DNA of 64,000 nucleotides from positions 20,150,001-20,214,000 of the forward strand of contig CM120642.1 in the NCBI GenBank assembly GCA_051362555.1, given 5' to 3'. The stretch is from Lingula anatina (lineage: Eukaryota; Animalia; Brachiopoda). The first letter of the stretch is position 1. Every line of letters starts with the position of its first letter. Positions 8,625 to 62,584 of the stretch are shown piece after piece. The notes beneath the pieces are model-generated. The model had not been told where the DNA came from. It worked only from the letters and a program-made list of their open reading frames with translations, and searched no databases. A program made the position numbers and the translations under genes.

Positions 8625-8675
<51 letters not shown>

Positions 8676-11600
8676 TGCTCTTAGACTCTAAAGAAGTGTC
8701 TTAACCATTATGATAAAGATAGCACTGAAAAAAAAGTTTGCAGAATAACAAATTGAAATGCAATACTTGGTCTGTTTATTTTTAAATTGGTGAATATAAT
8801 AAATTCCTAAGTGATATTTCTTAAATTGTGACTATGTTTTCAATAATCAGGATAATCAATAATCAAGATTAGATAGCTTGTCATGTTAGGAATTTTCTTA
8901 TTGAAATATGTTCATCATAATATGGCAGTCATATTGTGACACATTGATTTATAACTGCACAACAAAAAGCTGAGTGAGAAAAAAGATCTTACAATATACA
9001 TTCATCTTTAGATGTATATTTTCAGTATAAACAAACAAATAAATGAAATGATCGATTTTGAATTAACACATGTACGTGATAGTTAACACATCAGGTATGT
9101 TGTAATGGATTGCAAGCAATTATTTGGTTAATAATCAAAGTGTTTTTAATTAATTTTTAAAATTTCTATTGTATTTTTATAGAACTCCCGATTCTCAGGA
9201 ACTGCTCCCTGCCAGACAGTCTTCGACAACAAAGGGTGGGCTGTTATGATACTGTGGAGCTGTTTGTAAGTGTTTTAATGAAGGCCAATGATTGTAATGT
9301 CGTAATTATTGCTTTATGTTGTTGACTGTATCGTAACAGTTCTTGTTTTCTTTTTAGATAAGTAAATTTGTTTATTTATAAGTAATGTTTCATTCTGTCT
9401 TATTTCAATAAGATAGAAATACAGTTCCCATCCCTGCTCAAAAAATTAGTTCCTAGTATTGCTAATGTAAATTTAAACGCATGTTATAGCCATTCAGTTG
9501 CAGTGTTAAGAGGCTTTTCCAGGAACCTATATATTGAGAACTTTTTTAAACATTCTTTTATAAATTGTGGATGACACCTGGATATTTTTATCTCTGGAAT
9601 ACGTGTACCACAAATGGTCCCACTGGAATTGATGTATTTGGCCCTACAGTTCACTAAAAGCTGTTTTTCCTTTTGTAAGTTGACATTTTCTCTCCAGAAC
9701 TACATCAGCCAAGTACCAGAGGTTGAGTCCATCTTGTTTGTGAATGATGCTTGCCTTACAGACGTATTCTTCAAGATGTGTGACAATTTTAAGAAGGCAG
9801 GTTTCTTTTCTTTTTTTAAAACAAAGACTATTAGAGAAAGAAGCTGGTATAAGCTGTATTTTTGATTTTAAAATGATATATTTTATATTCAGTGGTAAAC
9901 CTAAGTATCAGGTCATATATGCTAACACACTACAATATATAATTATACTACTGATATTGATATTGATAAATCCAACAAGGCAAATAATAACGATTTCAAT
10001 TTTAGGACAAAATGGCTAAGCTGAAGAGAGTTGCCATCATGAACTGTCCACGTATCACAGACAATGGTTTATACTGGTTAGCCCAGCTGGTCAATGTGGA
10101 CACACAGGTTAGTGGTCAGCCTCTTGCCAGGGGGATGTTATGCCCCTATTTCACACAGACCACGAATCCCACGAATGGCCATGAATTGACAAATTTTACG
10201 ATTCGTGGTTGAATCGTAAACAGTTCGTGAAGTTCTTAACAGATTCGTATATATTCTTAGTCAGTTCTTGCACTTCTTGACCAACAAGAATTGGTGGCAA
10301 AAACTTTGTTGCCCCTATTTATCACAGACCACGAATCCCACGAATTGCCAGGAATTGAAAATTTCAGGATTCGTGGTTGAATCGTAATCAGTTCGTGAAG
10401 TTATTAACAGATTCATATATAATCGTAGTCAGTTCTTGCAATTCTTGATCAATCGGGAATTCGTGGCAAAAAAATTGAGCTGTTCAAAGTCTTGGCCACG
10501 AACTCCCGATTCCAAAAAATCGTAGTGAATTTCTGGACAATATTCGTGCAATTCCAGCCGAATCCCACGAATATTCGTAACACTATTGCACCTGTATCAT
10601 AACTGAATCGTGAGCATGTCGAATTAGACCAGAAAATTTCACGAATCCTCACGAATCCTGATATTTGTCAATTCCTGGCGATTCGTGGGATTCGTGGTCT
10701 GTGTAAAATAGGGGCCTTAGTGGTCAGCCTCATGCCAGAGGGACGTGAGCAATGGGGTCTGTTGTTGGTTTGAATGCTTTTGAAATTGTGTGTGGATAAG
10801 TGGTGGTATTGAGGTCCCCACAGGGAAATTTCTCATTCTTTGGTTGGTCCTAGGTATGAGATTGAGTTAGTTTATACAGTGTATTAAAATCATGTGTGTG
10901 TGTATGTGTATGTGTGGGGTACGTACAAGCTGTATTGTAAACATTGTTACAAATACATCATTGTAGCAGAAATCAAGTGCATCTATGTATATACTGTAAC
11001 ATTCAATGTACATATGTAACTACACTGCAGGCTCTACTATTTACTAATCAAAATGTCAAATGCAGTCAGTGAATCACTTCTGATTTCAGTAATATACTAA
11101 GATATATTTAATAAATATATATATTATATTTTATAGTTTTCTATTGCGTCTCTTCCCAGGTGACAATAGCAGATTGTCCCAAGGTGACAGAGCTGGGGCT
11201 TTCATACATACAGTATGAAATGGGGATACAAGTGGATACATTAGAGGGTGAAAAAGAAACAGGTATATGATCCTATGGAGTGTATTCTGGTATGATGTGG
11301 TTATGGTGCTGTGTAAGACTAGTGTCTCTATGCAGCTGTAGAATTCAACCCAGTCAAGGGATGAATTTTAAGAAAATTGCCTTTTCGAAGACTTTTAGCC
11401 TAATATGAAAAAATGTTCATTCATTGGTTATGAAAATCTTTGAGCATTGCAAATTTAAGCTTTTCTTATGAAGTTGCCACCGAGTGCTTTATTTATGCAC
11501 TTTATCCCTTATATTAACTCAGATGATTGAACTTAAAAGTGATTTTGTTGTAAGGATGATTTGTTTTCTTGTTTGAAATAGTTCTGAAAGGAACGTTATG

Positions 11601-14600
11601 TGGAATCCTTGCACCATTTTTATGTACAGACACAGATGTGTCTGTACATATAGCTATCATCTGCGTCTGTCGTCGCCGTCGCCGTCGCCGTCGTCGCTGT
11701 CGTCGCCGTCGTCGCCGTCGCCGTGCACTTTTACCGATAACACGATAAGTGGAAAACCATTTTACCTTTTGACTTGAAACTTGCAGAACTGATGAATATT
11801 CATAATACGCAGGTCAAGTTCGAAAATCAGCATGATTGGGTCACTTTTAAGGAATTAATGCAGTTTTTTCACTTTTTTCAGCATATATGCAGCACCGATA
11901 ACACGATAAGTGGAAAACCATTTTACCTTTTGACTTGAAACTTACAGAACTGATGAATATTCATAATACGCAGGTCAAGTTCTAAAATCAGCATGATCGG
12001 GTCTATTTTAGGTAATTTATGCTGTTTTTTCACTTTTTTCAATATAAATGCAACACTGATAACACAATATAAGAAAAACGGATTGGCCAATTGTAATTAT
12101 ACTCACAGGAGTGGTCAATCTTACTAAAACGCAGGTTGAGTTCGAAAATCAGCATAATCGGGCCATTATTTTAGAAGTTATACTGTTTTTTTCACATTTC
12201 CTCAGATTCAATTCTTAAGCATGTTAACAGTCTCATTATTTAACTAATAAGATGCCTTAAAAGTGTTTGTTTGATATTTCCTGCATCTTTACAACATTAT
12301 TAGTTAATTATGTAAAAAACATGGTAAACTTGTTATCATGTATTGTGTAATAAAGTGTCAAAAATGGAAATAAACTCATATCATTGCAGTTTGTCAGATT
12401 CAATCATCCACTATGTTCATAATCTCAGAATGGAGGAAATTGGACATTTAACACTGTTCTATTGATACTTTTCCCATCTCATCAATTTTTTTAGTTGGTC
12501 ATATAAAAATGGCAGTAAAATGATTATTTTGTTTTATGTTAAAAAAGTGTTAAAAATGGAAATAAACCCATTTCAGAACAGTGCTGTCTTGTTTACATTT
12601 TGGCATTTTCAAGGCGTGACTTTGAAGTTCCATGGGCCTTAAGACCTTTGCTAGTCACATTTTCTGAATATCTGTGATACAAATATTTTATAATTAAAAA
12701 TTGATGGTCCTTAAGCTGTTAAACATTATGTAATATTGCATTAAAATTTGAAGAAACCCCTATTTTGGGCACTGCTTCCATGATGACTATTTAAGGAAAA
12801 TCATGTCACTTACTGTTCTCAAACTTACAGGAAAGAAACATGGGACTAAAATACAGCTTCAGTAGGCAATGCAGTCTGTTTGGTTTTTTTTTCTGGCAAT
12901 TTAACAGTTTTTTGTGAAAATTTAATTTTTCACTTATTTGCATCTTTATTTAAAAAATTACTTGTTTTTATGTACAGACACAGATGTGTCTGTACATATA
13001 GCCATCACCTGCGTCTGTCGTTGCCGCTGTCGCCGTCGTTGCCGTGCACTTTTACCGATAACACGATAAGTGGAAAACTGTTTTTCATTTCAGCTTGAAA
13101 CTTACAGAATTGATAAATATTTATAATATGCAGGTCAAGTTCGAAAATCAGCATGATCGGGTCACTTGTAGGGAAGTTATGCTGTTTTTTCACTTTTTTC
13201 AGCATATATGCAACACCGATAACACGATAAGTGAAAAACCATTTTACCTTTTGGCTTGAAACTTACAGAATCGATGAATATTCATAATACGCAGGTCAAG
13301 TTCGAAAATCAGCATGATCGGGCCATGTTTGTGGAAGTTATGCCATTTTTTCATCTTTTTCAGCATAAATGCAACACCGATAACACGATAAGCGAAAAAT
13401 CGTTTTACTTTTTGGCTTATAAGTTTCTGAAATGATGAATATTCATAATACGCAGGTCAAGTTCGAAAATCAGTCTGATCGGGCCATTTTTATGGAAGTT
13501 ATGCTGTTTTTTCACTATTTCAGCATATGTGCAACACCGATAACACATTTCAAGGAAAATCAATTGGCCAATCGTCTTAAAATTCACAGGGGTGATCAGA
13601 TTTACTAAAATACAGATGAGGTTTGAAAATAAGCTTGATCGGTTCAGTTTTGGTGAAATTGTGCCTTTTTTTGTATGTAAGTCTTTTTTCCTCGGATTTA
13701 ATTCTTAGGCATGTTAACAATCTCATTTGTGAACTAATTAGTAATGTAAAGGTGTTCTTTTGACATTTTCTGCATCTTAACAATATTGTTAGTTGATTGT
13801 ATAAAAATGATGGTAAACCTGTTATTGTGCATTTTGTAATAAAGTGTCAAAAATGGAAATAAACTCATATCTTTACAGTTTGTCAGATTCAATCATTCAC
13901 CATGTTCAGAATCTCAGAATGGAACAAATTGGACATTTAAAATTGTTCTATTGATATTTTTCCTATGTCAACAACTTTCTTAGTTGATCTTTTAAAAACA
14001 ACAGTAAATTGATTATTTTGATATATGTAAAAAAAGTGTTGAAAGTGGAAAGAAATTCATTTCAGTACGGTTATCTCTTGTGTACATTTTGGCATTTTGA
14101 AGTTGTGACTCTGAACTTCCATGGCCCTGAAGACCTTTCCATATCAAATTTTCTGAATATCCATGATACTTTTATTATGTACAGACACAGATGTGTCTGT
14201 ACATATAGCCATCACCTGCGTCTGTCGTCGCCGTCGCCGTCGTTGCCGTGCACTTTTACCGATAACACGATAAGTGGAAAACTGTTTTTCATTTCAGCTT
14301 GAAACTTACAGAATTGATAAATATTTATAATATGCAGGTCAAGTTCGAAAATCAGCATGATTGGGTCACTTGTAGGGAAGTTATGCTGCTTTTTCACTTT
14401 TTTCAGCATATATGCAGCACCGATAACACGATAAGTGGAAAACTATTTTACTTTTTGTGTTGAAACTTACAAAACTGATGAATATTCATAATACGCAGGT
14501 CAAGTTCGAAAATCAGCATGATCGGGTCACTCTTAGGGAATTTATGCTGTTTTTTCACTTTTTTCAACATATATGCAGCACCGATAACACAATAAGTGGA

Positions 14601-17368
14601 AAACCATTGTACCTTTTGACTTGAAACTTACAGAACTGATGAGTATTCATAATATGCAGGTCAAGTTCGAAAATCGGCATGATTGGGCCATTTTTAGGGA
14701 ATTTATGCTGTTTTTTCACTTTTCTCAGCATTTATGCAACACCGATAACATGATAAGTGAAAAAAATTTTTACCTTTTGGCTTGAAACTAACAGAACTGA
14801 TGGATATTTATAATACTCAGGTCAAGTTCGAAAATCAGCATGATCGGGCCTTTATTTTAGAAGTTTAGCTGTTTTTTCACATTTCCTCAGATTCAATTAT
14901 TAGGCATGTTAACAGTCTCATTATTTAACTAATAAGATACGTAAAAGTGTTTGTTTGATATTTCCTGCATCTTTACAACATTGTTAATTGATTGTGTAAA
15001 AATGATGGTAAACTTGTTATCGTGTATTGTGTAATAAAGTGTCAAAAATGGTAATAAACTCATCATTGCAGTTTGTCAGATTCAATCATCCACTATGTTC
15101 AGAATCTCAGAATGAAGGAAATTGGACATTAAACACTGTTCTATTGATATTTTTCCCATCTCATCAATTTTCTTAGTTGGTCATATAAAAATGGCAACAA
15201 ACTGTTTATTTTGTTTTATGTTAAAAAAATGTTAAAAATGGAAATAAACCCATTTCAGAACAGTGCTGTCTTGTTTACATTTTGGCATTTTTAAGATGTG
15301 ACTTTGAAGTTTCATGAGCCTGCAGACCTTTGCTAATGACATTTTCTGAATATCCATGATACTAATATTTTATGATTAAAAATTGATGGTCATTATGCTG
15401 TTAAACATTATGTAACGTTGCATCAAAATTTGAAGAAACCCCTATTTAGGGCACTGCTCCTGTGATGACCATTTAAGGGAAAACATGTCACTTACTGTTT
15501 TCAAACTTACAGGAAAGAAACATAGGGCTAAAATATAGCTTCAGTAGGCAATGCAGTCTGTTTGGTAATTTTTTCTGGCAGTTAAACAGTTTTTTGTGAA
15601 AATTTAATTTTTCACATATTGGCATTTTCAAGGTGTGACTTTGAAGTTCCATGAGCCTGCAGACCTTTGCTAGTCACGTTTTCTGAATGTTCATGTTACT
15701 AATATTCTATTATTAAAAATTGATGGTCATTATGCTGTTAAACATTATGTAATATTGCATCAAAATTTGAAGAAACCCCTATTTTGGGCACTGATCCCAT
15801 GATGACCATTTAAGAAAAACCATGTCACTTACTGTTTTCAAACTTACAGGAAAGAAACATGGGGCTAAAATACAGCTTCAGTAGGCAATGCAGTCTGTTT
15901 GGTAATTTTTTCTGGCAGTTAAACAGTTTTTTGTGAAAATTTAATTTTTCACATATTGGCATTTTCAAGGTGTGACTTTGAAGTTCCATGAGCCTGCAGA
16001 CCTTTGCTAGTCACGTTTTCTGAATGTTCATGTGACTAATATTCCATTATTAAAAATTGATGGTCATTATGCTGTTAAACATTATGTAATATTGCATCAA
16101 AATTTGAAGAAACCCCTATTTTGGGCACTGCTCTCATAATGACCATTTAACAAAAATCATGTCAATTACTGTTCTCAAACTTACAGGAAAGAAACATGGG
16201 TCTAAAATACAGCTTCAGTTGGCAATGCAGTCTGTTTGGTAATTTTTTCTGGCAGTTAAACAGTTTTTTGTGAAAATTTAATTTTTCACTTATTGGCATT
16301 TTCAAGGTGTGACTTTGAAGTTCCATGATCCTGAAGACCTTTGCTTGTCACGTTTTCTGAATGTCCATGTTACTAATATTCTATTATTAGAAATTGATGG
16401 TCATTATGCTGTTAAGCATTATGTAATATTGCATCAAAATAGAAGAAAACACAATTTTTGGTGCTGCTGCTATGATGAGCATTATGGGAAAACCGTGTTA
16501 TGACTGTCAAACCTTTAAAAAAGAAACACAGTACTAAAATGTAGAATGAGTATGAAAAGCAATCTAATTGGCTTCTTTTTCTGGAAGTTACAATGTATAC
16601 ATTTGAGTGAAAGATTCATTATCTTTTTGGCATATTCTTTGTGGGACTCGGAGCTCCCATGGACATGAAGCCGAATGGTAATCAAATTTTCTACATGTCC
16701 ATGCTATTTATTGTCAATAATCAAAGATTGGTGATAATTATTCTATAATTTATTATGTAATGTTACATCAAAATTGACAACAATATTTTTGCATTGCTAC
16801 TGCAAACATTATGAAAAGAAAACTGTGTTACTTATTATTATTTTTAACTTACAAGTATGATTTTTAGGATTGGCATGCAGTTCAAATTAGAAAGCCAGGT
16901 CAATTGGGTTATCATTTATTATTGAATTTATGCAATTTTGTGTGAAATTTTCATTTTTCTCATTCTGGCACTTTCTAAGTATAAACTTGAACTCTGATGG
17001 GCCTGAAGCGTTATGCTTTTACTTTCGTCGTTGTTACCTGTTGTGCATAATTAAAATTTGATGTTGACTGTGCAGTAAAACATAATGTATTATTGCATCA
17101 GAATTGGTAGTCTCCTATTTTGTGCATTATTGTTTTGTGCTTTTCTTAAGATGTGACTTATGGGCCTGAAAGACCTTTGAGAGGGTCAGTCTGTTAATAT
17201 CCCTTGGGTATCACTTAGCTAATTTCTGAGTTATAAAGTCATTTGCCTAATTGATAGGCCATTAAAGGAGATTACATAAAGCACACTTGTTGATATTTCC
17301 TTGTAAACTCCCAAAAGTTAAGCTCTCTGCTAGATTAATAATAAGGAAGCAGTGATAATTATGCAGGT

Positions 17369-17423
<55 letters not shown>

Positions 17424-36632: not shown

Positions 36633-36684
<52 letters not shown>

Positions 36685-37143: not shown

Positions 37144-37174
<31 letters not shown>

Positions 37175-38000: not shown

Positions 38001-38032
<32 letters not shown>

Positions 38033-41336: not shown

Positions 41337-41405
<69 letters not shown>

Positions 41406-44400: not shown

Positions 44401-44869
44401 AAAGTTTCCGCACCAGCCTCACCCCAGAAGATTGGACATATCTTTTCTTCAATTGTCGGACTGTCCAACAGCCCAGCATTCCACTGGTCAGTCAGAAATA
44501 TTACATATTACGTAATTAAGTAAATGTAGATTGTCAAAAATTACTGTTAGAGGCAAAGTAGGCAAATTATTATTCAAAAATACTTTCTTTGAAGTTGATA
44601 ATTGCAGGTAATGGATTTTAAAATTATTATTCAAAAATACTTTCTTTGAAGTTGATAATTGCAGGTAATGGATTTTAAAATTAACAATTCTCGTTCATCT
44701 AAATTTTAGCACTTTGTTCTTAACAATATGATGGCTGGTTCAAACAGGAAGCCAAGGGGTTATTCTGTTTAGTCTTTCGTTCCTCATCATATTCATTAGT
44801 GGCTACAGAGATCTTATTTTGGGATGTGTGTGCAATTAATGATAATAATAATAATAATGATAATAATAA

Positions 44870-44963
<94 letters not shown>

Positions 44964-46721
44964 ACATGAATTCTACTGCTCAGATGAGTGATAAATATTA
45001 TTGTTATCTAGAATTAATGTAGAATTTTATGCTCCTTTATATTTCAGGAAGATTTCAATTGTCCTCCCAATGCACCAGTCATCAAGAAGACACAAACCTA
45101 TACATACCCTGCCGGGTTCCACAGGGATCTTTTGCCGGCCATTTTTGCAGCTTGTGAACAGTTTGTTTCACCTGAAATTGTTTGGGCACAAGGATTTCTG
45201 TGTCGGCATGATGGAATTGAAGTCATGGTCAATGAAACTATTACTGGTGCGGTAATTTCCTAAGTAATACAAAAAAGGATTAATCATATTTTTGACCGCA
45301 TATTTCTTTTTGGACAAAACTCAAATGACGAAATGCTTGTTGAATGGGTTCATTTAAGAAAGTTGCCTGTTGAAGGCTGGGTTTTATAAGTTAAAAAAAT
45401 TATTTGAAATAGCAAATTTTAATATTAAAAAAATCTGAAATAGAGATGATTAATAATTTTGAGTTGTGGCAAACTATGTACCAATATATGTTAATGGGAT
45501 ACAGATAATCTTACATTTCTGTTACTTAGTTATAGTTACTGTAATAAATAATAGATTTTTTGTGAATTTTTTTTTTCATAGGTGTGGGCACAGGTATGAT
45601 TACCCTCTCTGGACAAAGCTACAGACCAGAGGATGAAAGGGCAAAGGCTGAGATGGAAAGAAGCATCTTGTTAGAGATGTATATCTATGGCATGGTCATT
45701 GACTCAGTGCTGGGAGAGACACAGACTCTAGCTTTTCGACAAGGTGGGTGGTTTATTTAGTAGCCCCTCTCTCAGACATCTGATAATAGCAGTCTTCATC
45801 ATTTCACTTCATTTGTCAAGAGGGATTAGGAAACTGCTAATCTGGAGTTAAAATCTGTTGATAATGGGGATAACTATCTGATTCAGAAACCAATCTTGAG
45901 CTGCAATTTTCTTTTATCTTACCAGTAATCACACAGTCAAGTAACTAATAATAAAATTATCTTAGTTTTTATACCAGTCTGACATTATATATATCTGATA
46001 GTACCAGTCATGTAACAGTGACCTATTTTATTTAGGTTGTTGGTTGTCCTGCTAAATATTTTTTTTTATTTAAGATTTTTATATTTTAAGAGTGTTCAGA
46101 TAATATGTGTTGCTTTTGTTTATCGTTTTATTACTTTTACATTCATATATTGTGCATTTGTCTTAGATCAGTAGTTTAAAAACGTTTTCTGTGATCCAGA
46201 TAAAACACTAGTCAAGAAAGCTGGGAAATGTGAAAATTTACAGTGTAGAGTTCAAAATATAATCATTATCTAACTTCAATCACAGGTGACCTGTCCGAGC
46301 TGCTGGACATAAAGGTGGACCCTTGCCTATGCCAGGAACATGTGTGGAGCCGGCCAGATGGGACATACCCTTGGGACTACAAGGTGACCGTGTGCACTCG
46401 GTGTAACAACTGCTCAGATAAAGGGATAACATGTCCATGGAATGGCATAAAGGAGAGGAGACTCAGGTATGCCTTACGCTGACTGCAGAGACATCTATAG
46501 GAGGGATAATTCATTTGACTTGAATTACTAGACATGTACATCTTAATGGAAGTATTGGTTTTAGAAAAGAGAATGTATGAACAAATTATTGTTATTTGAA
46601 CAAAAAGAATGCTCTGACGTATGTTTGTGGATCAGAGAGTGATTAAAAAGCTCTGAAAATAAATCTGTAGGAATAAATCTAAGAAATTAATGGAAACTTT
46701 TAAAAATTATCAAACTGAATG

Positions 46722-46774
<53 letters not shown>

Positions 46775-52700: not shown

Positions 52701-52758
52701 ACTTTTTTATATCATTGCTATTAAGAAATGCATATTTTCCAGCCTTTTGCAAAAAAAA

Positions 52759-52823
<65 letters not shown>

Positions 52824-55800
52824 AAAAATGTTGCTGATAAAATTGGATTCACAAGTTTAATTATAATTTTGGCATTTTTCTTCATTTTTTTCAGCTCTCA
52901 CCTACAGTTCTGGTACAATGACAGCCAATGACACCCCACTTGGCACTTGGCTTCTACTCCCAGAACTAACTGAAGCAGTTCTGAAGAAGGTTACCTTGAA
53001 GAAACTTCTGGAATTTGGCAATCTGACGGCCATGTTGGCATGTCAGAATACCAGGCCTGCTTGGATACACCCGCGAGGCTACCCGCGATATCCAGGTAAG
53101 CTCAAATACAAGACTATGTCCAAGTTCATTAGCAAAAAAATTACACTAAATGGTTTAAGAAAATAAAAATAGAAATAGTTATTTGACTATTTTTGGTCAT
53201 GTGATATGTGTTACTGCCAGATCATCTGATGTTGCCAGTGCACTTGTCTACTCTGAAGTCTCTTTTCCACACATGACAGCCAGCTGCAACCAACTTTTGA
53301 AATTTAAAGGGATAATTACTCTTCATATGAGGTCTATATTTCACTATAAAAACATTGTGAATAATTCACAGAAATATAATATATTCTGTTGTACGACAAA
53401 AGCAGCAGTTATAGCTATTATTCTGATATCTGAGCTTGTCTTCAGACCACGTGACCTCCATTGATGGCTATACTCTGTTACAATCTCTTAAGAGATTTAA
53501 ACAAAAAACCAAACTTTTTAGAAAAAAACAGGGACTAACTTTGAATGTAAAAATGGATTCATTAGCCATTGGCAAGTATGGGAAAATTGTTGTTTACTCC
53601 AGGAAAATTCATTTTTTGGCCAAACGAAGAGTTATTATCCCTTTAAGCTGTGCACAATAAAAAAACTAATTCCATTATTCATGATACTGCAATAAAATGT
53701 TTGCATTTGTGCCAAGTGTACTTTTTTAATATGGCTATCTGGCTGCATCTAGATGTTTGTGTGATCATTTGTGATGGAAAATTCAATTTAATCAGCTTGC
53801 CTCACAGAATATTTCATAGAAAGTACTCAACTTATTTGCCATGTTTAAATGGTAACATTTCTTCAAATTCTTGCAGCTCATTTTCATTTGATTGACATGG
53901 CTCCCCAGAAGGTAAAGACCAGTGCTGAGGCAGTGCTGATGTTTGAGAATATGCTGATGAACAGAATTTACAGAGGCCTCGCCCAGAGAAAAGTAAGTGC
54001 ACAGATATATGTTATAAAAATTATCATTTCTTAAATCTAGAGTTCATGTAGGTACATGTGGGGATAACTTGTAGACAGTACTTGTATGAGATAAGAAGCA
54101 CCATAGTTCAGCTATTTCACATAGTTTCTTAGTAGTATTTATACTGATTGTTATGATTTCATAAAACAGTTACGGTAGAAATATCACTATTTCAATATTT
54201 CAATTTCACTATATCAATGTTTTAAAAGGCAGTATGGAATAACAAGGACTTAAACATATGAAATGTATGATGATTTGATAAATTATACCATGTTATGTAC
54301 AGTAGCATAATTTTCACAGAGAGCAAAAAAAAATGATGATAAACAGTACTTTTCTGTAAATTTTATGCTGTTTAATTGTAAGCTCTAAACATAATTAATT
54401 TTTTGCTTCTCTAGGTCTCATTGCCCCTGTTAGATTCAACAAACCCACAAGAGCGGGAAAAGGTATTGTGCAGTCACTTCCTGTTGTACTAGTACACAAG
54501 AAATATGCATCATGACCTTTTGATATATTTTGAAATGTAATCTGTAATCTTTGAATATGTCAAATATCAAAAAATATTTCAAATTAAATCTTGTGAAACC
54601 TAGTTTAACTAATAGATAGTTTTCTTATTAATTGTTCTGTCATGGCTGCCGAATCAATACATTGCTGATATTATAAGCAGGTACCAGTAATTGGAAGCAA
54701 AGTATTTGTCAATGATTTATAAGTACCTGTGTCACGATCCAAAATAATTTTACTCAGATATTATCAAAATACAATTTTCTGAGAAGGTTGCATATCTTTT
54801 TAAAAAGATATTTCCACATTACAAGAACAAAAAGTTCTCATCATTTAATTACAATGTATTCCAGATAGAGTATCTTTTCCAAGAAAGATATCTCTCCTTT
54901 TGTGCTGCCATCTGCAGGCATGTTTGGAAAGGAGGCTTCACATCGGAGAGGCAAGCTGCAGTGCCATGGATCAAGGAGTTAAGTGAGACCTATGGAGACC
55001 TGCAAGCTGGTTTAATGGAAAATCACAACCATGGTTGCAGGGAGATTCATGACAAGCCAGACGAAGTTTTTAAGGGTCCTCACGTCAGCTTGAAGCAAGG
55101 GGAAAATCTGGAAAAGTTCAAATTTGATAAAAATCGAGGCACCGAATATGCTGTTGCTGTTGTTTTGCAAAAAACAGATACAGATCTGGAGAAGATTCCT
55201 GTACAAAGTGAAGATCTGTCCACGCTATACCTTACCTGTGGTCAGCCATCGTGGTTTGAGCCGTCCACATACTCTGATGGCAATCTGGAATTGACTACTC
55301 AGCTCCCATCGACGTGGAAAATGAAAAATCTCGCAAAATTTTGTGTCAATGGCCTCATCACAACAAGCCAGAATGTTTCATCTATGGAGTGTAAAAACTT
55401 GACAGTGGTGGATGTCTCTGAGTCTCTAGTAGAGACTTTGCCAGACTTCAGGTAAATGATCCAAAGATTAAGATATTTGATAATGAATATTAATTGGAAA
55501 CAGTGTCATGTTGCAGGTGGAATTATAGTAAATAATGATGAAGGTTTTCTAGAAGTCAAAAGATAATCATGCAGAATATTTAATAGATTACTGTTTGCTT
55601 GGACTTAAGAAAGACAAAAGTATTATGAAAAACCTTTTTTATTTTGCTAATTAGTAATTCATTTATTTAGTAAAATATAGAAAATTTTAATGGAAGCATG
55701 ATAATCAGTAAGAAGGTCATTCATGCTTTATTTTGATATTCAATATGTTTTTATTATTTTCAGAGTTCTGCCTAAAGTGAGGGAGGTCAATGCATCTCAT

Positions 55801-58800
55801 TGTATGGTGACCATTCAGTCTCTGACCAGTTGTCATATTGATCAGCTGAAATATCTGGTCAGCCTGTCACTGGATGAACTGTTACTGGACTCTTTGCCAA
55901 GGAGCTTTGGACAACTGAAAACACTTCAGTATCTGTCCATTAAAGGTAGTGTTTCTCTTATCTGTGCATGGATTTATTGACTTGTTGGGTGGCCATTTGA
56001 GTGAATGAACAAATGAATGAATTGCCATTTATTTTGTTCTTAATTTGCACTTTGATTAGATATTCACCTGTTACAGATTTCAAATTGTTTAAGTTTTAGA
56101 TAAAAGAATTTTATTAACAAAAGCCGAGTTATGTCTCATTTCTTACTAGTAGATGAAATTATATAAAAACAAGTGAGAAATGAGGTTTTTGAGGGTCTCT
56201 CAACATATTTCCATAAATGACATGAGATTTAGTAGACACATACTTGTAAAACTTTATTATATCTCATTCCAAGCACAATGTATTGACCTTTCCAAGGTTT
56301 ATTGTCTATGACTGAGAAAATTATAAGATGTTAACTGTAAATCAGAAAATAATATAGTATAAAGTGAGAACTTTTGAGAGCATATTATATAATATTTGTA
56401 AGCAACATTTTCCTTTTAGCTATTTTCCCCTGTGAAAAAAATTGTCAATTTCAAGTACCATGAAAATCTTTTACAAATCTTAAATAAATCTTTGGATTCA
56501 CAACTCTCATAATATTAATTCAATTTGCAATGATGCAATTGTTTAAGTTTTACCCTATAATAAACTTAGTACATATTTCCCAGGTATCCCCTGGCTGCGA
56601 GGGGACGAGGACCCGCAGTGTGGCCAGGCAGAAACATCTGGACTCTCAAATTCTGTAGCAAAAGTTGCTGCCCGTACATCCTGCATTGAAGTAAGGAAAT
56701 ATGTTTTTATGATCCTGATTTTTTGAATGAATGGCACTTTTTCACTAATTTTTCTATTTAAAGTAAATTTATATAACTTAGACAGTTGATAATCTTTTAT
56801 CTTTTTAGTATTCACTAAAACTTGATATAAGTTTTCAACATTTCAACATAACCAGATTTCAACTTTTTAAACAATTTATTCAATTTTTTTTCAGTCTCCA
56901 AATGAGCTGTTGAAGAAGTATGACTATGACAACAATGACATACTGAATGTGAAAGAGGAGATACCTGGTCTGAACACAGAGTTGTTCATGAGTGTACCAA
57001 GATTGGGACAGACATTTAAAGGTTTTACTGTGCTTTGATCTTGCCTTTTATAATATAATCATATCTATGTTCCTTTCTATCACATATTGATCTTTTAATG
57101 AGCCATTTTGATAATTCAGTGGAGTTGATATTAACCAACTAAACTGTGTATCACAAGTTTTAATTTTGCAAGATTTTGAAAAATTAATGTTTTTTCTTAA
57201 AATCATTTTAGCTTCCATGATTTGATTCCATTATTTTCAAGAATCCCTACAATAATTTATCAATTGTTAATAAATTAAGTATTGTATAAATCCAGATGCA
57301 GACTCAAGTGGCATCCCTCTAGCCGTGTTTGAGATGGAAAATTTGAGAGAGCTTCGTCTTGCCAACCAGGGCATAAACTCTGTTCCACAAACCATCGCCA
57401 AGCTGAAGAGACTCCGGGTATTGGAGCTGTCTAACAATCCCCTTCTGGAGAGTGTTGCAGGAGAAGTGGCCTTCTTACCCATTAGAGGTTAGTTTTGACT
57501 GTTTGCCTGTTTTGAATTAAAATTTGGTCTTAGATTCTGTGTCATTTTACAATTTTGATCAATGAAGCAGTACAAAGATGCACATTTTTAGATAAAGAAG
57601 TGTTTTTTGAATTATATTAATTTCACTGACTAGAAGCCTGAGATTGAATGAATTGATATTCAACTTCAGATAATGTTAGCCAAGGCTTGAAGCTGGATGG
57701 ATGCCCTTCCCTGAAGAGTCCTCCAAATGACATAGTGGGCAGAGGAGGAGGCGCTGTCATCAGCTTCCTCAAACGTGTAGCAGGCGGCTTTACTGTCTGC
57801 AGGAGGACAAAGCTCATGTTTGTTGGACTGGGAGGAGCTGGGAAAACAAGGTGAGTTAGGGACCATTCCCAGACCCTATCATACTAACTGTGGAGCATCT
57901 ATCTCCAGTGGCATTCTCGCTAAATTGCAATGAACTTAAGCTGCAGGTTAGATGTCTGTCAGGCCTACTAAAGCTGCTTTGGGGTTATTAATTATCGTAT
58001 AGCAGCTAAAGTAGGCGTGCCAGACATTTAAGCTGCTTAAGCTGAAGGCGATTTATTGAGAAACCCCTTGGAGATGGATTGATCCTGTTAGATTGACTTA
58101 GGTGAGGGAGGCCAGTCTTAGACATAGTACAGGGAGTAGCTGGTAAAAAGAGGTGAGGTATTTAATTAAAGATTTGACTGGGAGGAGCTGGGAAATGCAG
58201 TAAGTGAAAGCATTTGGAAAATTTGGTAAGACTTTATTTGGCCTTTCATGTTGAACTTTTGAAAATCTGAATGTTCTCTTGCCAGGACGTAAAAGGTGGC
58301 ATTGACAAAAGACAAAGATGTTGAATTTTATGCTACTTAAACAGTTAAAATTCACCTAAGGTCTGTGATAACTGGTAAATTTTCACATGTCTACTTCAGT
58401 TTGCTGCGTGCTTTAATGAGTGGTAACTACAAAACAAAATCTCTGGGTGCCAAAGAAGTCACTGATGGCATTGACATCAAAGCGTGGACAGTGAAGAAGA
58501 ATGATGGGCCAGAAGTGACCTTCAGCACTTGGGATTTTGCTGGACAGAAAGTGTACTACAACACACATCAGGTGGGTGACAGTCTTATTTGACACTCATT
58601 TTCATAAGCTGGGAAACAAAATCACAGGTCTCTAGTCTGCAATTTCAGTTTCCTAATAAGCTGGTAAACAAAAATTTTTTTTAAGTCTGTGGCCAGCAAT
58701 TTTTATAAGCCAGTAAGCAAAATACAGGTCCCTGAACAGCAATTTGAAAGGGAGGTTTTTTTCTGACAAAGTGGACCTCTTTACCCTCTTAGTTGACCCC

Positions 58801-61800
58801 TTTTGAAAAGTAGAATAAAATGAATATCAAGTTTTTATGACAGACCCTTTCCAGCCAAAAAGGCAGTTTTTTTACCCCCCCCCCCCCCCCCTGCATACTG
58901 ACCTGTACATAAACAGCTGCAAAATATTTAATTTATTTGTACACATCTGACCAGGTTAATCTTCACCATGTTAAAACATGATTTATTATCACAGTGGATG
59001 CTGATGTGGTTTAAACTAAAATTAAACTATTTTGTACATTATTCTTTGTGTTCTGTTTCCCTAGTTTTTCCTGTCCAGTAGAGCAGTGTACCTGCTGCTG
59101 TGGACCACCAGATCTGGCTACGAACATGCAGGACTGGAGTTTTGGCTGAGCTCCATCGCCAGCCACGCTCCTGGAGCACCTGTTTTTGTCATCGGGACGC
59201 GAGCAGATGAGGTATGACTGTGTCAATCTCTGTCTGATATAAACACTGAATAGTGGAGATATTTCTCTTTCCTAATAAGGATGCTGGGCTTTTTGGTAAC
59301 ATCACAGGCAAATATTGAATCTTTAAATCTGTAAATTTTAATTTATTTTTAAAAGTTAATACAGCTTCAAATGAGTTCTCAATCAGATGTTTTGATTTTG
59401 ATGGATTGAAATTTGAAGAGTTAACATAAAAATTCACTTGTTAAAGATACACAGTGACTGTTTTTTAGATTGTTTCACTTTGATAGTATGATTAACATTC
59501 TTATTACCTTCTACAGGTTGATAAGCCAGAAATTCCCATGGAGAAACTACAGAAGAAATTCCCCCAAATTGCCGGCTTTCATTTCATCAGCTCTCTCACT
59601 GGACAGGTATGAAATATGAAGTGGTCAGCTGGATTTGAAAGACTGAATTGTTAATCTGGGCTCTAAATTGAAAGCATCACTAATTGCAATAGCTTTATCA
59701 CTTTTTAATTCGCGGCTATTATATAGGGCGAGTAAATCCCGAGTTATGGAATAGAGGCAAATCTCCATGCTTGCACTCAGTCGCAATTTGCGGTGCTTTT
59801 AAGTTACGGAGCCCTGGTGCTGTTATGGCGATTTATTAAATTAATCTCAAGATTTTGCAGTTTGGACAAGGTTGTTACTATTTATTACTTGGTCAATACT
59901 TTTAGGTTATAACGTACGTGTAAAGTTGATAGAGTCAGTTGGTGTTTTCAAGGTTAATAGAGCAAGTGCTGAGTTTTTCAAATGAAATTATGTACTGAAT
60001 TGTTTTCCAGTAGATAAAAAAAAATTATGCTGCTAAGGTATGTGAGAAAACAATGATATTGCGCATAAAAATAGACTAATCATTATAAGTGAATAAATAA
60101 CATAATGCAGAATTAAACCTTAATAATGATCATTATACAGTGAAGGCTGATTTAAGAAACCATATTCTATTGTGTTGTCAGGGTATCCGTGTGTTGGAGG
60201 ACCGGTTGGTGGATGTGACTTTGGCACAGAAATATATGGGTGAACAGATCCCCACTGTCTGGCTGAAACTGGAGACCGCTATTCTCACGTAGGCTTTATT
60301 AGGACACGCAGGCCCATGCATGCACACACCCACACACACATCAAATGCATAATTTATCAATTATTAAGTACATGTTGTACGGAGATAATACCAACATATC
60401 TTCAGTCTGAATGCCACTGTTTCCTTGCTAGCTTTATTTATCTTTTTTAGCGAGATATGCAGTCATTTGACTCTAAAATATGTTATTGAGTAAACAGCTT
60501 TAATGTTTTATTTTGATTTCATGTCATTTTATTTTGTTTTATTTCACAGCATGAAGGAGAAGAAGAAAGTGAGCATTGTTAAGTGGGAAGAGATTGCTGC
60601 AATGGCAAATGAAGTTGGAATTTATGAAGAAGATGATGTAAGGATGTTTATGCTTTTGTTCCTCATACAAGAGACTTCTGTGACTTTTAGATTTTTTTTA
60701 AGCAACTGCATTTAAATCTGAAAACAAACCACTTAAGAAATTCTCAGAGCAGTGACACAGATCTGTGTTTCAATGATGATTGACTAATGATGTTTCCTCA
60801 ACTCTACCAAAATGTTATTAATAATTGTGATTTTTCATAAACAATATTCTTATTATGCTATTTCAAGGCTTTGTCTTTAAATGTAATGTTAGTAAGAAAC
60901 TATTTCACTTTGTGTACATGCCTGATCCAGCAAAATATATAACCATCAATATACGGATTATGACAATGTTTTCATGAAAAATGTTTTCAAAACATGATAA
61001 TATTTCAAGAAAACATAGAAATCATTTTAAAACCATTAAAAAATGCTTTTGAATAACCTTTTAGAAAAAGTTCTTATCCTTCATATTTAAAAAATACTAA
61101 GTCTTTGACTTTCATTTTTATCCTATATCCTGACTTGTATTCACTGTGAATCACTGTGTTCTTGCAGCTGAAGGAAGCCATCCAGTTCCTGACCTACCTA
61201 GGCTCAGTGCAGTATTTTGACAATGAGTTCCTTAGGAAATATGTGGTCATCAACCCGCAGTGGATTGCTGATGTCATGGCATGCGTGGTGTCCATTAAGG
61301 CCAATGCCATTAAGGTGAGACCAATCTAGATAGAGACTGAGATAATTTATTTTAACCTGAGCAGAGAATACAAAAATTACAATAAATATTCTAAAATTAA
61401 ATTAATATGATAAAACTTAACAATATTTTACAGTCAAATAATTATTATTAATAAAACTTGCATTGCGGCTTTCCATACTTTTTAATGACTCAGATATACC
61501 TAAATGTCAATATGAACATACAGTCCTTATAATCAGTTAGAGACACAAATATTAACCAGAGTCACTTACAGAAACATTACTTCTAGTACACTTAGACTTC
61601 TACACTATTGAAATAAATAAAATTTTACTACATTTCTACTTCTTCTCTCAGGACGGTCGCCTGAACCACTCAGACATCGGTGTCATTTGGAAGGCGTATG
61701 ACAAGGAGTATCACGAGTGGCTGCTGATGTTGACCCAGGAGTTTGATCTGACCTTCCCTTTGCCAGATCAGAAGGTCAACCTGGTACCATGTCTGCTGCC

Positions 61801-62409
61801 TGGAGAGGAGCCAAAGGTCAGTCTTAAACTGACCAAATTTTGATTTTTTTTCTTTGTTTATTTTTATGTAGTTATTAATTCACTTTTGTATTTTTTTTAG
61901 AGTTTTAAAAAATTAAGAGTCTTTCATGAAGTCCATGTTCATTTATCATAAAAGAGTAGTCATGCATGAAAACTCACTTCCTAGATAGATCAACAAAATT
62001 CAGTGTGGGATATTTTTGCTTGCATAGTAATATTACATGTAATAGATGTACAACTGATGTGTGCTTTTAAAATTTTTAGCACAAGTAGTGTATTTAGGAA
62101 TTTCTTTCCACCAGAGGAACTGGTAATTTGTCAAGCTGAATAGCTACTAGGTGTGTAGACATTATAAGCTTCTCAACACGTAAAGTTCTGAAGTAAAATA
62201 ATTTAAACTTTTGTCCCAGCACCAATTTCTGTCACCCAGGGGCAGTAATCTCTTTTCCTCGCCCTCAAATTCACTAATCTAATTTTAATAACCATTTTTC
62301 ATATTTCCAGTATGACTGGCCTGATCTGGAGGCAGACTCGGGGATCAGAGAGACCAGGATGTTGTATCAGTTCACGTATTTGCCAACTGGATTGTTCAAC
62401 AGGGCACAG
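7509..62409 (+). CDS. Giant multidomain Roco-family protein (LRR, pseudo-ROC with SPRY-SPRY insert, COR-like, Cys-rich, SPRY-like, LRR with EF-hand, ROC, COR); 3' end outside the window
   Basis: 53 phase-consistent coding exons: 7509-7582, 7953-8079, 8359-8596, 9183-9265, 9698-9796, 10006-10107, 11160-11262, 24993-25183, 25489-25611, 26077-26174, 26593-26790, 27355-27520, 27938-28024, 35167-35228, 35668-35862, 36465-36624, 36818-36943, 37265-37488, 42328-42448, 43050-43244, 43877-44095, 44355-44486, 45048-45246, 45582-45743, 46286-46466, 46783-46960, 47477-47661, 48042-48212, 48548-48599, 49242-49403, 49725-49840, 50767-50970, 51283-51424, 51954-52070, 52468-52555, 52895-53095, 53446-53571, 53877-53992, 54415-54462, 54865-55451, 55764-55945, 56584-56690, 56895-57021, 57296-57487, 57670-57850, 58400-58571, 59065-59211, 59517-59606, 60182-60288, 60550-60637, 61168-61314, 61652-61816, 62311-62409. 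Total 7962 nt with no stop codon. Two joins need GC donors. The Roco identity is firm. That all exons form one transcript is inferred from frame continuity. Confidence 0.85.
8628..8672. repeat. (GA)n microsatellite
   Basis: Read directly. Similar tracts: 36636-36681 (CT)n, 37144-37170 and 52767-52818 (GA)n, 17372-17421 and 41340-41403 (TA)n. Confidence 0.95.
9698..11262 (+). other. Cysteine-containing (FBXL-type) LRRs of the N-terminal module
   Basis: Three exons give VESILFVNDACLTDVFF, LKRVAIMNCPRITDNGLYWLA and VTIADCPKVTELGLSYI, matching LxxLxLxxCxxITDxGL. Confidence 0.75.
10141..10716. mobile_element. PIF/Harbinger-type MITE with a duplicated left arm
   Basis: TIR GCCCCTATTTCACACAGACCACGAATCCCACGAAT with its complement at 10680-10716; TTA on both flanks; left ~170 bp repeated from 10311. 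Confidence 0.8.
14175..18256 (+). mobile_element. HINE/DINE-like copy 3, full length ~4.1 kb
   Basis: 5' palindrome and subterminal IR TGTACAGACA, microsatellite, four 161-bp units (14261, 14422, 14583, 14744), 337-bp units (15284, 15621, 15958, 16295), 3' subterminal IR TGTCTGTACA and short hairpin CAGC-TTT-GCTG. Inserted in a T run with no TSD. Confidence 0.85.
17466..17699 (+). mobile_element. Short second-family HINE nested in the large element (also 41448-41681, and 5'-truncated at ~24105-24323)
   Basis: TTACCTC..GCC(T/A)AGGAGGTTATATTTTCACC...GCCTTGGCAGAGGTCTGCACTCTC..TTTTCTAGTT layout with subterminal IR and CTAG end. Absent from the equivalent site in copy 2 (~19210). Confidence 0.7.
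21061..24881 (+). mobile_element. HINE/DINE-like copy 4, full length ~3.8 kb
   Basis: Same head and tail; three 161-bp units; 337-bp units at 22027, 22364, 22700, 23037; short internal deletion near 24105. Confidence 0.85.
26077..28024 (+). other. SPRY domain 1 (SPRYD3/RanBP9-like)
   Basis: NYFEIEVVDTGRSGTITMGCV...QPGWERNSVAYHLDDGSLF...GDIVAC...IQFLKNG...PYPAVGMHSRGE. Confidence 0.9.
28174..28669 (-). repeat. 3' LTR of the BEL/Pao element
   Basis: Direct repeat of 34583-35078; ends TGTAAGG...GTGCTATA on the element strand. Confidence 0.96.
28792..34539 (-). CDS. BEL/Pao Gag-Pol polyprotein (~1915 aa from the first ATG)
   Basis: Gag (YFNGDPVSYPTF), triple Zn knuckle (CVFCSGNHTIKQC, CFNCLQSNPPHTARTC, CQVPGCGKRHHALLH), protease (AFLDNGS), RT (FYVDD), RNase H (HHFSDAS, FWTDS), integrase (HIKEGH..CMVC, GVDYF, SDNGT, WERLI). 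Order PR-RT-RH-IN is typical of BEL/Pao. Confidence 0.96.
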   Translation of the reverse strand: MAYHGSLQDFGLSHRRFRTNSLRSASESQRTKAALAIANAQLELEEAETALRRRYREQELKDEMRMLSLRAQVRRREIEAEIQEDASLSEHNFTIDRYFNSMEEGNVDTIDAHNLTNSDHVSHQHIGAQQQQQSEQQRSRMNAHHPHSTQQLQQLGVSYETEPTQPKPMSRTNQPQQFPTAAQSSQPSQLPQPYIVPSHTDPTMTLNPHATEYTPMTAQSIGTSTIEQQRQLTMNDQVAHLLQQQQRTLQEITLNQEMPKREYLYFNGDPVSYPTFIRNFETNIEQRVPEFRSKLSYLIQYCTGEAKEAIKSCVILEPEEGYFQARNILQTHFGQKHIIIKAMLEKIVTGPPIKASDITRLSKLSRDMTTCQMTASKMGYYEDLNSMDTLEKVVRRLPQYLQAGWAKRSGKLLNQWIEVKFKDLSDYLEEMVQIANTRFGQLVGSKPDVKPKSKVSCHNPSYKTTTLATNVHPAEKSNSNKSQPSSVQKDPCVFCSGNHTIKQCFKFARMNYSDRRNFVSENKLCFNCLQSNPPHTARTCQWKQLCQVPGCGKRHHALLHPPCVPANSPALQREPGANATSVVTDPVVAVQSAAVATGRRISLQIVPVTVSGGNGGPIIETYAFLDNGSDHSLCLHSLAEKLGVRGKSIQYSVSTVNDESCVNQGQEVQLEVKAINSQQGLILDQVWTTDRLPICEKNIPNNEDILEWSHLKDVQLPELDDKTVTILIGNDHPEAHWRIEERRGDKKQPYAIRTILGWTILGPMKRPNDGDVTVNFIHADQVLGCDNSLRGCDSISAQLSKMYNNEFSESSVSSNQCMSFEDRKAKRIMDESVVFVDGHYQVSLPWKSDELLPNNKPAAEKRLNLLKRRLQRDEKLREKYTQALQEYIDKGHAQKIDHRNLHNNSNSVWYLPHHPVINSKKSKIRVVFDCAAKYAGVSLNDSLLQGPDLTNSLIGVLLRFRQEKIAIVADIEQMYHQVRVHPDDRDALRFLWWPAGDLSKQPEEYQMLVHVFGATSSASCTVYALLKNAEDHGKDFDFQTVETVYRNFYVDDCLKSVETVDEAKMMITQLTSLLQKGGFHLTKWISNQEEVLSSVPTAEQAPSVRNVNFNKQPIEHALGVQWNIEKDTFGYCVRERDIKNTRRGILSFIASIYDPLGFAAPLILKPKQILQELCREGIAWDSDLPAEHLNAWTQWREGLDNLQTIEVPRCYKSAQLADIQSIELHHFSDASLSGYGIVSYLRFVDINQQVSCTIVMGKSRVAPLKTVTVPRMELTAATLSAKVHKQMMEELQLPIHRVVFWTDSTIVLQYIRNSATRFHVFVANRLQMIHDVSSPSQWYHVDSDQNPADYASRGIQLRSDNGDDIHRWLHGPAFLYQPEIHWPKQPDNLHEIPENDREVKRKSAQIHVTTSSEVSDGVERLLHHFSSWYTLQKSVAWILRFKRYLLSRVRQLTVDRNNEPLTVQEIALATDAIVMYIQAKSFPKECNVVSSAMTKKPDSKGYVSPLRKLSPIKIEGILCVGGRLQNAAISTSQKHPKILPHDHHVTEIIVRHYHIKEGHVGAYHVLSVIRQEFWITRGLSTVKKVIRKCMVCRRWNAVPSSQVMAPLPRSRVTPGKPPFHSVGVDYFGPLLVKCGRRTNKRYGCIFTCMATRAVHLEMSYNLSSDSFIQAVLRFISRRGPPCEIFSDNGTNFRGAEADLKRILQQWNQEKISDSLLRRNIQWYFNPPNASHAGGVWERLIRSVRKIMRSILGNRLVDDETLLTVLTEVEKIMNDRPLIRKADHYYELETLSPNQLLLLRSNPCLPADNFTERDQYNEQWKHAQLIADQFWQRWIKEYLPVLQERQKWLRPAKNFEKGDFVLLIDENAFRGQWPKGLIEETFPDKYGHVRQVIVKTAKGRFRRDVRKLCLLEGNFV
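34583..35078 (-). repeat. 5' LTR of the BEL/Pao element
   Basis: Direct repeat of 28174-28669. Confidence 0.96.
35167..36943 (+). other. SPRY domain 2 (SPRYD3/RanBP9-like)
   Basis: DYFEFEILN...AITIGAV...QPGWRRNSIGLHADDRKCF...GDKMGCGL...IYFTWSG...LFPFI. Confidence 0.9.
37946..42238 (+). mobile_element. HINE/DINE-like copy 5, full length ~4.3 kb
   Basis: Same head and tail with unique flanks on both sides; three 161-bp units; 337-bp units at 38905, 39243, 39580, 39918, 40255. Confidence 0.88.
43050..45743 (+). other. Divergent COR-like domain (first copy)
   Basis: KVLKDLHSQGIILYL...PIVILNIEVFAAVMNKAL...FQILYKMINDLGIL...YLFFNC...TYTYPAGFHRDLLPAIF...VWAQGFL aligns by eye with the downstream COR (EAIQFLTYLGSVQYF...YVVINPQWIADVMACV...WLLMLTQEFDL...NLVPCLL...LYQFTYLPTGLFNR). 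Confidence 0.7.
44843..44963. repeat. (AAT)n followed by (ATT)n microsatellite
   Basis: Read directly; the two halves are complementary. Confidence 0.95.
46724..46779. repeat. (TAT)n microsatellite abutting a splice acceptor
   Basis: Read directly; ends at ...TATTCAG| 46782. Confidence 0.95.
47108..47321. mobile_element. PIF/Harbinger-type MITE
   Basis: Imperfect TIR GACCCCATTCCCAGAGATT / AATCTATGGGAATGCGCCC; TAA on both flanks. Confidence 0.65.
49992..50086. mobile_element. 95-bp palindromic MITE
   Basis: GGTCCGGTTTCATCAAGGCTGGATAGCGCTGTCCAG pairs with CTGGATAGCACTATGCAGCCTTGATGAAACCAGGCC; CTG on both flanks. Confidence 0.7.
50420..50585. mobile_element. Free copy of a CAGGGG..GAT/ATCCGCCCCTG MITE that is also embedded in the large HINE
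   Basis: Similar to 19448-19616 (flanked there by a TTATTG duplication) and to the matching segments of copies 3-5; here flanked by an ATAGT duplication. Confidence 0.65.
55300..57760 (+). other. LRR array preceding the ROC domain, with an EF-hand insert
   Basis: LTVVDVSESLVETLP, LVSLSLDELLLDSLPRSFGQLKTLQYLSI, LRELRLANQGINSVPQTIAKLKRLRVLELSNNPLL, and the Roco-typical LKSPPNDIVGRGGGAVISFLK cap. Confidence 0.9.
57800..60230 (+). other. Canonical ROC GTPase domain
   Basis: G1 KLMFVGLGGAGKTS (split by the 57851-58399 intron), G2 VTDGIDI, G3 WDFAGQKVYYNTHQFFLS, G4 VIGTRAD, G5 ISSLTGQGI. Confidence 0.95.
57897..58079. mobile_element. Degenerate palindromic MITE-like element
   Basis: Arms of ~75 bp are imperfect reverse complements (for example GCCTACTAAAGCTGCT / AGCAGCTAAAGTAGGC); no clear TSD. 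Confidence 0.55.
60231..62409 (+). other. Canonical COR domain (partial, continues beyond window)
   Basis: MGEQIPTVWLKLE, AIQFLTYLGSVQYF, VVINPQWIADVM, LVPCLLP, YQFTYLPTGLFNR. Confidence 0.92.
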
Positions 62410-62584
62410 GTACAAACATCTGTTTTACAAAATGACTGGAGTTTTGTGCTTTGTGAAGACAGCTTAGTTTTCATAAGTTAGTTTATAAAATTAGTTTTGT
62501 CTTATCAGCCTCAAACAATTTTATAAATGGATACTATTTTTGTTTACAGTTTTTCTTGAATCATTATAATAAAGTTTTCATATT

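Follow-up and report, generated by a model that had tools for sequence, protein, structure and literature searches.

Can a single Roco chain hold two GTPase units, one dead and one live, and if so, what would the dead one do? This question is raised by a window of 64,000 nucleotides from the brachiopod Lingula anatina (contig CM120642.1, positions 20,150,001 to 20,214,000; all coordinates below are those of the window), in which a preliminary description had proposed a tandem double Roco gene, i.e. a module of leucine-rich repeats (LRRs), ROC and COR devoid of GTPase motifs and fused in frame upstream of an intact LRR-ROC-COR module. Our analysis supports this interpretation in part. We regard the architecture of two tandem LRR-ROC-COR units as close to certain, and the first unit is very likely in a pseudo-GTPase state. 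The double Roco is real, ancient and partly foreshadowed in the literature.

The gene was assembled with a coordinate-only script, using splice sites derived from hand-read exon positions. The resulting model comprises 52 exons at 7509..62409 on the forward strand and is open over 2620 codons without a stop, in agreement with the proposal that a single spliced frame joins both units; AG acceptors were found at 51 of 51 sites, and the donors are 51 GT and one GC. Since exon ends were picked within nine bases of the hand-read positions such that the frame was held open, the open frame is no independent proof of the model. A GC-AG intron, the only one required by the model, follows position 9796 in the first LRR block. 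Each peptide quoted in the preliminary description was located on the forward strand within the span given there, namely HLALVCPP (25010), TWNLLELP (25151), SQVIIPVDF (25522), EESVQHV (25561) and SQILYWGTP (37319), KHVCLDEK (42425), GLPEMFNGL (43050) and VILNIEVF (43916) in the first unit, and KLMFVG (57810), WDFAGQ (58530), GTRAD (59194), HFISSLTG (59580) and GIRVLEDRL (60182) in the live unit. GLGGAGKTS and VLKDLHSQG gave no contiguous match because each of them is split by an intron.

With the longest exon as query, two RefSeq proteins of L. anatina were retrieved. P0001 corresponds to residues 762-2114 of the model (97.4% identity) and spans 37292-56693 of the window, and P0002 corresponds to residues 1823-2620 (99.1% identity), spans 54850-62415 and then continues via COR-B and two TIR domains. 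The two proteins lie on different scaffolds and overlap by about 290 residues; their odd ends are accounted for by a shifted frame at the start of an exon, by intron read-through and by a tail which the window does not contain. The stretch in which a boundary between two separate genes had been suspected, 45743-54865, is bridged by P0001, which speaks for one gene. Neither RefSeq fragment includes the exons upstream of 37265, which are based on splice signals and homology. Support by blastp begins at residue 153, and residues ~1-150 are without a homologue (best expectation value (E) 0.25), such that the four candidate 5' coding exons (7509..9265; residues 1-187) have homologue support from residue 153 only. 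Judging from the sequences of its relatives, the gene extends beyond the end of the window with the rest of COR-B and two TIR domains.

The model encodes, in this order, LRRs, a motif-less ROC with two inserted SPRY domains, a COR, a Cys-rich domain, an accessory region, a second LRR block, an intact ROC and a second COR, all on the forward strand. The first LRR block (9698..11247) consists of F-box/LRR-like repeats by pattern, with a profile match over residues 185-280. The linker between LRR and ROC is about 30 residues shorter in the Lingula model than in most relatives; a missing exon was sought in 11248-24992 and none was found there. The first half of the pseudo-ROC, from beta1 to alpha3 (24993..25611), matches Tubulanus P0003 with E 1e-10. 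It is followed by a linker and the first SPRY domain (26077..28024), for which a single exon gave a Pfam SPRY match of E 0.0024 and the SPRY domains of relatives gave E 1e-9 to 1e-12, and by the second SPRY domain and a further linker (35167..36943; E 2e-7 to the SPRY domain of P0003). The second half of the pseudo-ROC (37265..43214), delineated by the family profile and an orthologue model described below, holds beta5, a helical insertion, beta6, alpha5 and a linker, and leads into the first COR (COR-A plus COR-B; 43215..45743). The Cys/His-rich domain (46286..47500) is common to a subfamily (64 of 127 sequences), has invariant Cys and His residues and probably binds zinc. Relatives carry SPRY, MBT, PLAT or C2 domains at the place of the accessory region (47477..54462); in Lingula, no SPRY match was found there (best E 0.006), and its predicted structure has a predicted local distance difference test score (pLDDT) below 50. 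The second LRR block (54865..57806), in which relatives have an EF-hand-like insertion, precedes the intact ROC (57807..60244; G1 GLGGAGKTS, G3 WDFAG, G4 GTRAD) and the second COR (COR-A and the start of COR-B; 60245..62409). By its domains and motifs, this C-terminal unit is a Roco module: on P0002, the Pfam domains Roc (E 2.5e-21), COR-A (E 1.1e-28) and COR-B (E 3.1e-25) all score above the cut-off, and the motifs G1 to G4 are intact.

A HMMER search with P0001 yielded three distant relatives, which matched in the region of the first COR, and a word-based search with P0001 for longer proteins gave no match. The family was collected by means of the live module of the Tubulanus relative, for which 120 of 133 matches were listed. 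The collection comprises 127 predicted proteins (126 fetched plus the window model), 121 of which contain the live module according to the G1 and G3 patterns. P0120 and P0124, which have live CORs and are without the G3 pattern, were excluded, and four N-terminal fragments were added, resulting in 125 N-terminal parts. A profile grown on these parts alone found the first COR in 105 of them; the first LRR block was found in 83. Both units are present in one predicted chain in 102 of the 121 sequences. The N-terminal COR is present in all 94 members in which the live P-loop is preceded by 1300 residues or more, and the 19 members without it have at most 1223 residues ahead of that loop. According to their source names, members with both the first LRR block and the first COR come, among the matches listed, from placozoans, cephalochordates, hemichordates, nematodes, rotifers, flatworms, annelids, nemerteans, molluscs and brachiopods. 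On these sequences, the double-unit architecture is that of an ancient animal family in ten phyla, from Trichoplax to amphioxus, a reach that the preliminary description, which had suggested the search of other invertebrate proteins, understated. No vertebrate, arthropod, echinoderm or cnidarian entry was among the 120 of 133 matches listed, the search being word-based and length-limited so that absence from these groups is not implied. Lingula itself has at least two paralogues, P0053 and P0069.

The two CORs differ strongly in their conservation. Of the 52 supported splits in a tree of the dead CORs, 43 are found again in the tree of the live CORs, which indicates that the two travelled together, and in both trees the sister of Lingula is Owenia P0011. 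The mean identity is 18% for the dead and 55% for the live COR, and the dead-COR tree is 3.3 times longer; columns of at least 60% identity number 17 of 514 in the dead module and 279 of 482 in the live module. The stretch from alpha3 to the COR varies in length from 24 to 743 residues (64 sequences). Residues 1-190 of Owenia P0011 form a complete Rho-like GTPase ahead of the double Roco, which was set aside as a likely fusion of gene models. Sinanodonta P0004, P0006 and P0007 have consecutive locus tags and are near-identical tandem copies, of which P0007 closes with a BTB/Kelch-like region, possibly a neighbour fused to it.

The assignment of a second ROC-COR upstream of the intact one is carried by profile and structure evidence. 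A profile built from the N-terminal CORs alone matched 117 of the 121 live modules at E<1e-3 (best 5e-16), and the reversed control reached a best E of 1.8. Against a family profile built without the window protein, the window segment scored E 1.4e-6 for the ROC half and E 1.6e-23 for the COR (six targets). The Mytilus orthologue P0005, a fragment, is without the SPRY insert; its AlphaFold2 model (29-sequence alignment, pLDDT 79, predicted template modelling score 0.81) shows beta1, alpha1, beta2, beta3, alpha2, beta4, alpha3, a disordered insert, beta5, two long helices, beta6, alpha5 and the COR in this order. A Foldseek search with this model placed LRRK1 (4e-11), the Chlorobium tepidum Roco (CtRoco) and LRRK2 on top, with E 4e-11 to 1e-8. 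In VIA-align comparisons, residues 62-340 of P0005 gave Z 15-16 with Arf, Rab, Rag and Ras (root mean square deviation (rmsd) 2.5-2.9, 150-160 residues), residues 5-648 gave Z 15.4 with LRRK2 (rmsd 5.0, 429 aligned), and residues 349-645 gave Z 13.2 with the CtRoco COR. In the ESM Atlas, ROC-COR clusters were listed for the dead unit both by features and by structure, and the Atlas model of the unit is in agreement, the top structure rows being MFHAS1 (template modelling (TM) score 0.65) and DAPK1 (TM 0.62). For Lingula, a model of P0001 residues 18-1196 was confident over about 150-530 of that stretch only; its top matches were COR domains, with CtRoco COR 3dpt as the best Foldseek hit (E 1.7e-6).

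These results bear out several claims of the preliminary description and modify others. The second ROC-COR fold and the COR-like domain after the first ROC were both recovered, the latter by the match of the N-terminal COR profile to the live modules and by the COR fold of the Lingula P0001 model. The two SPRY domains lie within the first ROC as proposed, between alpha3 and beta5 and at the site of the insert of Mytilus P0005. The suggested fold check gave a ROC-COR fold in the Mytilus orthologue, and in Lingula itself only the COR folded confidently. The first ROC of Lingula is assigned by the family profile, and its ROC fold is predicted from the Mytilus orthologue. Strand beta5, which had been assigned to SQILYWG, has to be moved: the family profile puts it at GTPFQIAG (~37334), where it lines up with GAPVFVIG in the live ROC. 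The two modules do share the phase-0 intron ahead of alpha5; this is weak evidence, as it is one of nine introns of the dead module compared with eight of the live module and such a match has a random P of ~0.125. Intron sharing as a sign of internal duplication was rejected on the same count.

The motif state of the first unit was assessed on the 82 members with both the first LRR block and the first COR. GxxxxGK[ST] is present at beta1 in one of them and WDxAG in none, and three further P-loop-like matches are all far from beta1. The Lingula unit has no P-loop and carries Glu in place of the G3 Asp; every G motif is lost from its first ROC, as had been noticed before. In the live modules, the G2 and G4 patterns were found in 121 of 121, G1 and G3 being the criteria of selection. 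With a predicted GTPase fold and degenerate G motifs, the first unit has the features of a pseudo-GTPase. The exception is Trichoplax P0092, whose first unit has an intact G1 (GNRGVGKS, 195-202) and a G4-like VGTHAE (288-293) and no G3; in Pfam, this protein matches Roc (E 0.0026) and COR-B (E 0.0042) best, in each case below the curated cut-off.

At the output end, the relatives terminate in two TIR domains, and no kinase was found in Pfam scans of the family. The Glu at the catalytic position, which PMC7075850 describes as critical for the NADase activity of TIR domains, is present in 117 of 118 second TIRs and in one of 118 first TIRs, that of Trichoplax. The first-unit P-loop and the first-TIR Glu are therefore both retained in P0092 alone, which is a possible record of an ancestral double-live state. 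With regard to the origin of the first unit, the sequence context of beta4 and beta5, which bears some resemblance to that of the live ROC, points to a duplication of the live unit, and the helical insertion together with the ESM Atlas ranking points to an MFHAS1/DAPK-like donor.

What could the dead unit do in such a protein? We propose that it is a nucleotide-independent sensor and brake, which would keep the live GTPase-TIR unit inactive as long as no ligand is bound. The first unit would bind no GTP, and its LRRs and swappable inserted domains (SPRY in Lingula) would sense the ligand. Upon release, the live ROC would load GTP and rearrange as CtRoco does, and the second TIR would then signal, possibly by cleavage of nicotinamide adenine dinucleotide (NAD+). 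We assign this mechanism a rough probability of 0.45. It is suggested by the first unit being variable, tolerant of insertions, always retained and located upstream of a conserved GTPase-TIR switch; a ROC that is unable to bind GTP would stay in one state. The poor conservation of the dead module is at least as compatible with a sensing or scaffolding part as with mimicry of a conserved dimer partner. The domain set as such suggests an innate-immune or stress-sensing role.

Several observations weigh against this reading and its premises. In the reverse direction, a profile of live ROC-COR modules matched only three of the 125 N-terminal parts (E<1e-3), a Rho-like domain among them, and did not match the window protein; a profile-profile alignment spanned the COR only (probability 89.7), and Pfam scans of P0001, P0005 and P0008 gave no Roc or COR. 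The weak reverse search and the silence of Pfam on the first units of Lingula and Mytilus explain why annotation missed them. The second half of the Lingula ROC, when folded without the first half, had a pLDDT below 50. Four same-species runs of raw reads were mapped on 42300-62299, where most mapped reads came from intronic repeats; exon-bearing bins had a mean depth of ~0.2-2.6, on the expected strand in two stranded runs, and no splice of the Roco gene was among the 15 of 77 read joints listed. Loss of motifs is no proof of lost nucleotide binding, and a few positions of the dead ROC are conserved, such as the column of the G3 Asp, which holds Glu in 42 of the 56 compact members. The Glu of the second TIR is known from relatives, the Lingula site being beyond the window and P0002 ending before it.

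A more specific form of the brake model is an intramolecular pseudo-dimer, in which the dead ROC-COR would bind to its live counterpart via the COR-B/ROC surfaces of Roco homodimers and take the place of the second protomer. Nucleotide-free CtRoco is described as a dimer held by COR-B and ROC (PMC6337361, PMC11052575), which GTP converts to an open monomer with a swing of the LRRs (PMC11052575); a ROC without motifs would never leave the nucleotide-free state. The dead unit retains both COR-A and COR-B, and five of its 17 best-conserved columns cluster in a COR-B stretch (Lineus P0009, 579-593), although the conserved columns are mainly Gly, Pro and Trp, as expected for fold residues. The trees of dead and live CORs are largely congruent, but shared descent alone yields such congruence. 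Moreover, a median of 1308 residues separates the start of the first COR from the live P-loop, and the variability of the dead unit greatly exceeds that of the surface to be bound; its low conservation argues mildly against mimicry of a conserved interface. Altogether, we consider such a pseudo-dimer possible but doubtful. Equally tentative is a broader formulation, according to which the family would consist of ancient single-chain Roco pseudo-heterodimers in animals, whose motif-less LRR-ROC-COR docks in cis and gates a pair of a dead and a live TIR, the whole being a GTP-switched intracellular receptor with interchangeable sensors.

It is unlikely that the first unit is instead an atypical nucleotide- or partner-binding GTPase-fold domain with a separate task, such as localisation or docking to membranes or microtubules, and without gating. 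G1 and G4 are retained in Trichoplax, the frequent Glu at the G3 site is accompanied by a conserved Gln in the helical insertion, and separate roles for two GTPase domains were proposed in the text of Civiero et al. (2014; PMC4104024); the other members, however, are without a conserved P-loop Lys or Gly, and G1 stands at beta1 in a single member of 82. Low conservation and the tolerance of large insertions would also befit a decaying relic that acts as a folded spacer only, but all 94 long members, from ten phyla, have kept it, which makes this quite improbable. Least credible of all is a wrong join of two adjacent genes: the Lingula gene is divided in RefSeq between two proteins from different scaffolds, P0001 and P0002, the former has a short unrelated tail at its end and the read joints listed contain no Roco splice, but P0001 crosses all of the suspected boundary, overlaps with P0002 and has, like P0002, explicable ends, and 102 of 121 sequences hold both units in one predicted chain. 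The sensor-and-brake mechanism remains our preferred reading.

The introns and flanks of the gene contain further elements. A BEL/Pao long terminal repeat (LTR) retrotransposon (28167..35078, reverse strand) sits in intron 13, between the two SPRY domains, and is not part of the Roco protein; its frame (34617-28795) is uninterrupted over 1940 residues, its LTRs (28167-28669 and 34576-35078, 503 base pairs (bp) each) are 99.6% identical, and the element is young. The large introns 11248-24992 and 37489-42327 are full of tandem arrays of the same types of 161-bp and 337-bp repeats and have a 3-kb block in common (96.7% identical). Poly(A) RNA that stems from other loci is rich in the short intronic repeats at 47107-47315, 50446-50585, 53304-53647 and 57880-58085. 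Exons of a SPOUT-type RNA methyltransferase (Pfam Methyltrn_RNA_3) at 863-1639 on the reverse strand are apparently arranged head-to-head with the Roco gene, and the intron at the end of the window contains an AT-rich 37-bp tandem array (62719-63978).

The switching of ROC-COR modules, i.e. monomer versus dimer and the contribution of the partner protomer, has yet to be settled for LRRK2, the Parkinson's protein. A nucleotide-blind ROC-COR paired with a live one, from placozoans to amphioxus, allows tests of what a ROC-COR does without GTP and of whether an asymmetric dimer suffices, with Trichoplax, which retains the first P-loop and the first-TIR Glu, as natural comparison. Furthermore, about 100 invertebrate proteins labelled 'uncharacterized' or 'kinase' are re-annotated, ROC joins the short list of pseudo-GTPase folds, and the family points to a class of GTP-gated TIR receptors in invertebrates.

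Among known systems, LRRK1, LRRK2 and CtRoco have an LRR-ROC-COR core like that of the family and are the best structural matches of the dead unit, but have one ROC-COR each. In the LRRKs, the COR is followed by a kinase, whereas it is followed by TIR domains here; the absence of a kinase makes the label 'kinase roco5' of P0002 a misnomer. MFHAS1 and DAPK1 have a single, motif-bearing ROC-COR, and MFHAS1 has a helical insertion after beta5. Degenerate GTPase-fold domains in p190RhoGAP and the tandem GTPase in one chain of EhRabX3 are analogies only, neither protein being known to have a COR, LRR or TIR. The bacterial and algal Roco proteins in immune-like contexts include no double unit in the accessible texts of PMC8195603 and PMC11378527. 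Similar in domain content are the Aplysia protein LOC101848126 and the actiniarian NG1 with its look-alikes from oyster and Trichoplax, which combine LRR, ROC, COR and TIR with MBT, C2 or EF-hand accessories and for which an immune role was proposed. The Aplysia protein is described as LRR-ROC-COR-TIR with one ROC-COR from Pfam/InterPro (PMC9334734), and NG1 and its look-alikes as LRR, ROC, COR and TIR, again with one ROC-COR (PMC5094078); given its length of at most ~1300 residues, NG1 would be a single unit. LOC101848126 is our P0067, in which a cryptic first COR is present. A literature search, which covered main texts rather than figures and supplements and few subscription papers, returned no description of a second ROC-COR or of an animal pseudo-ROC. 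The preliminary description, which named no account of this architecture but left room for one, agrees with this search as to the second ROC-COR. A Ras-like domain before the ROC had been reported by Civiero et al. (2014) in three Trichoplax proteins, including TRIADDRAFT_57945, and the presence of two GTPase domains in one chain was called novel and intriguing there. TRIADDRAFT_57945 is P0092, a member of the present family. The domain was viewed in that text as a possibly active Ras-like output and not as a ROC with a COR of its own, and it was not followed outside Trichoplax, whereas the first unit described here amounts to a complete LRR-ROC-COR, which is distributed over ten phyla and has lost the motifs in 81 of 82 members.

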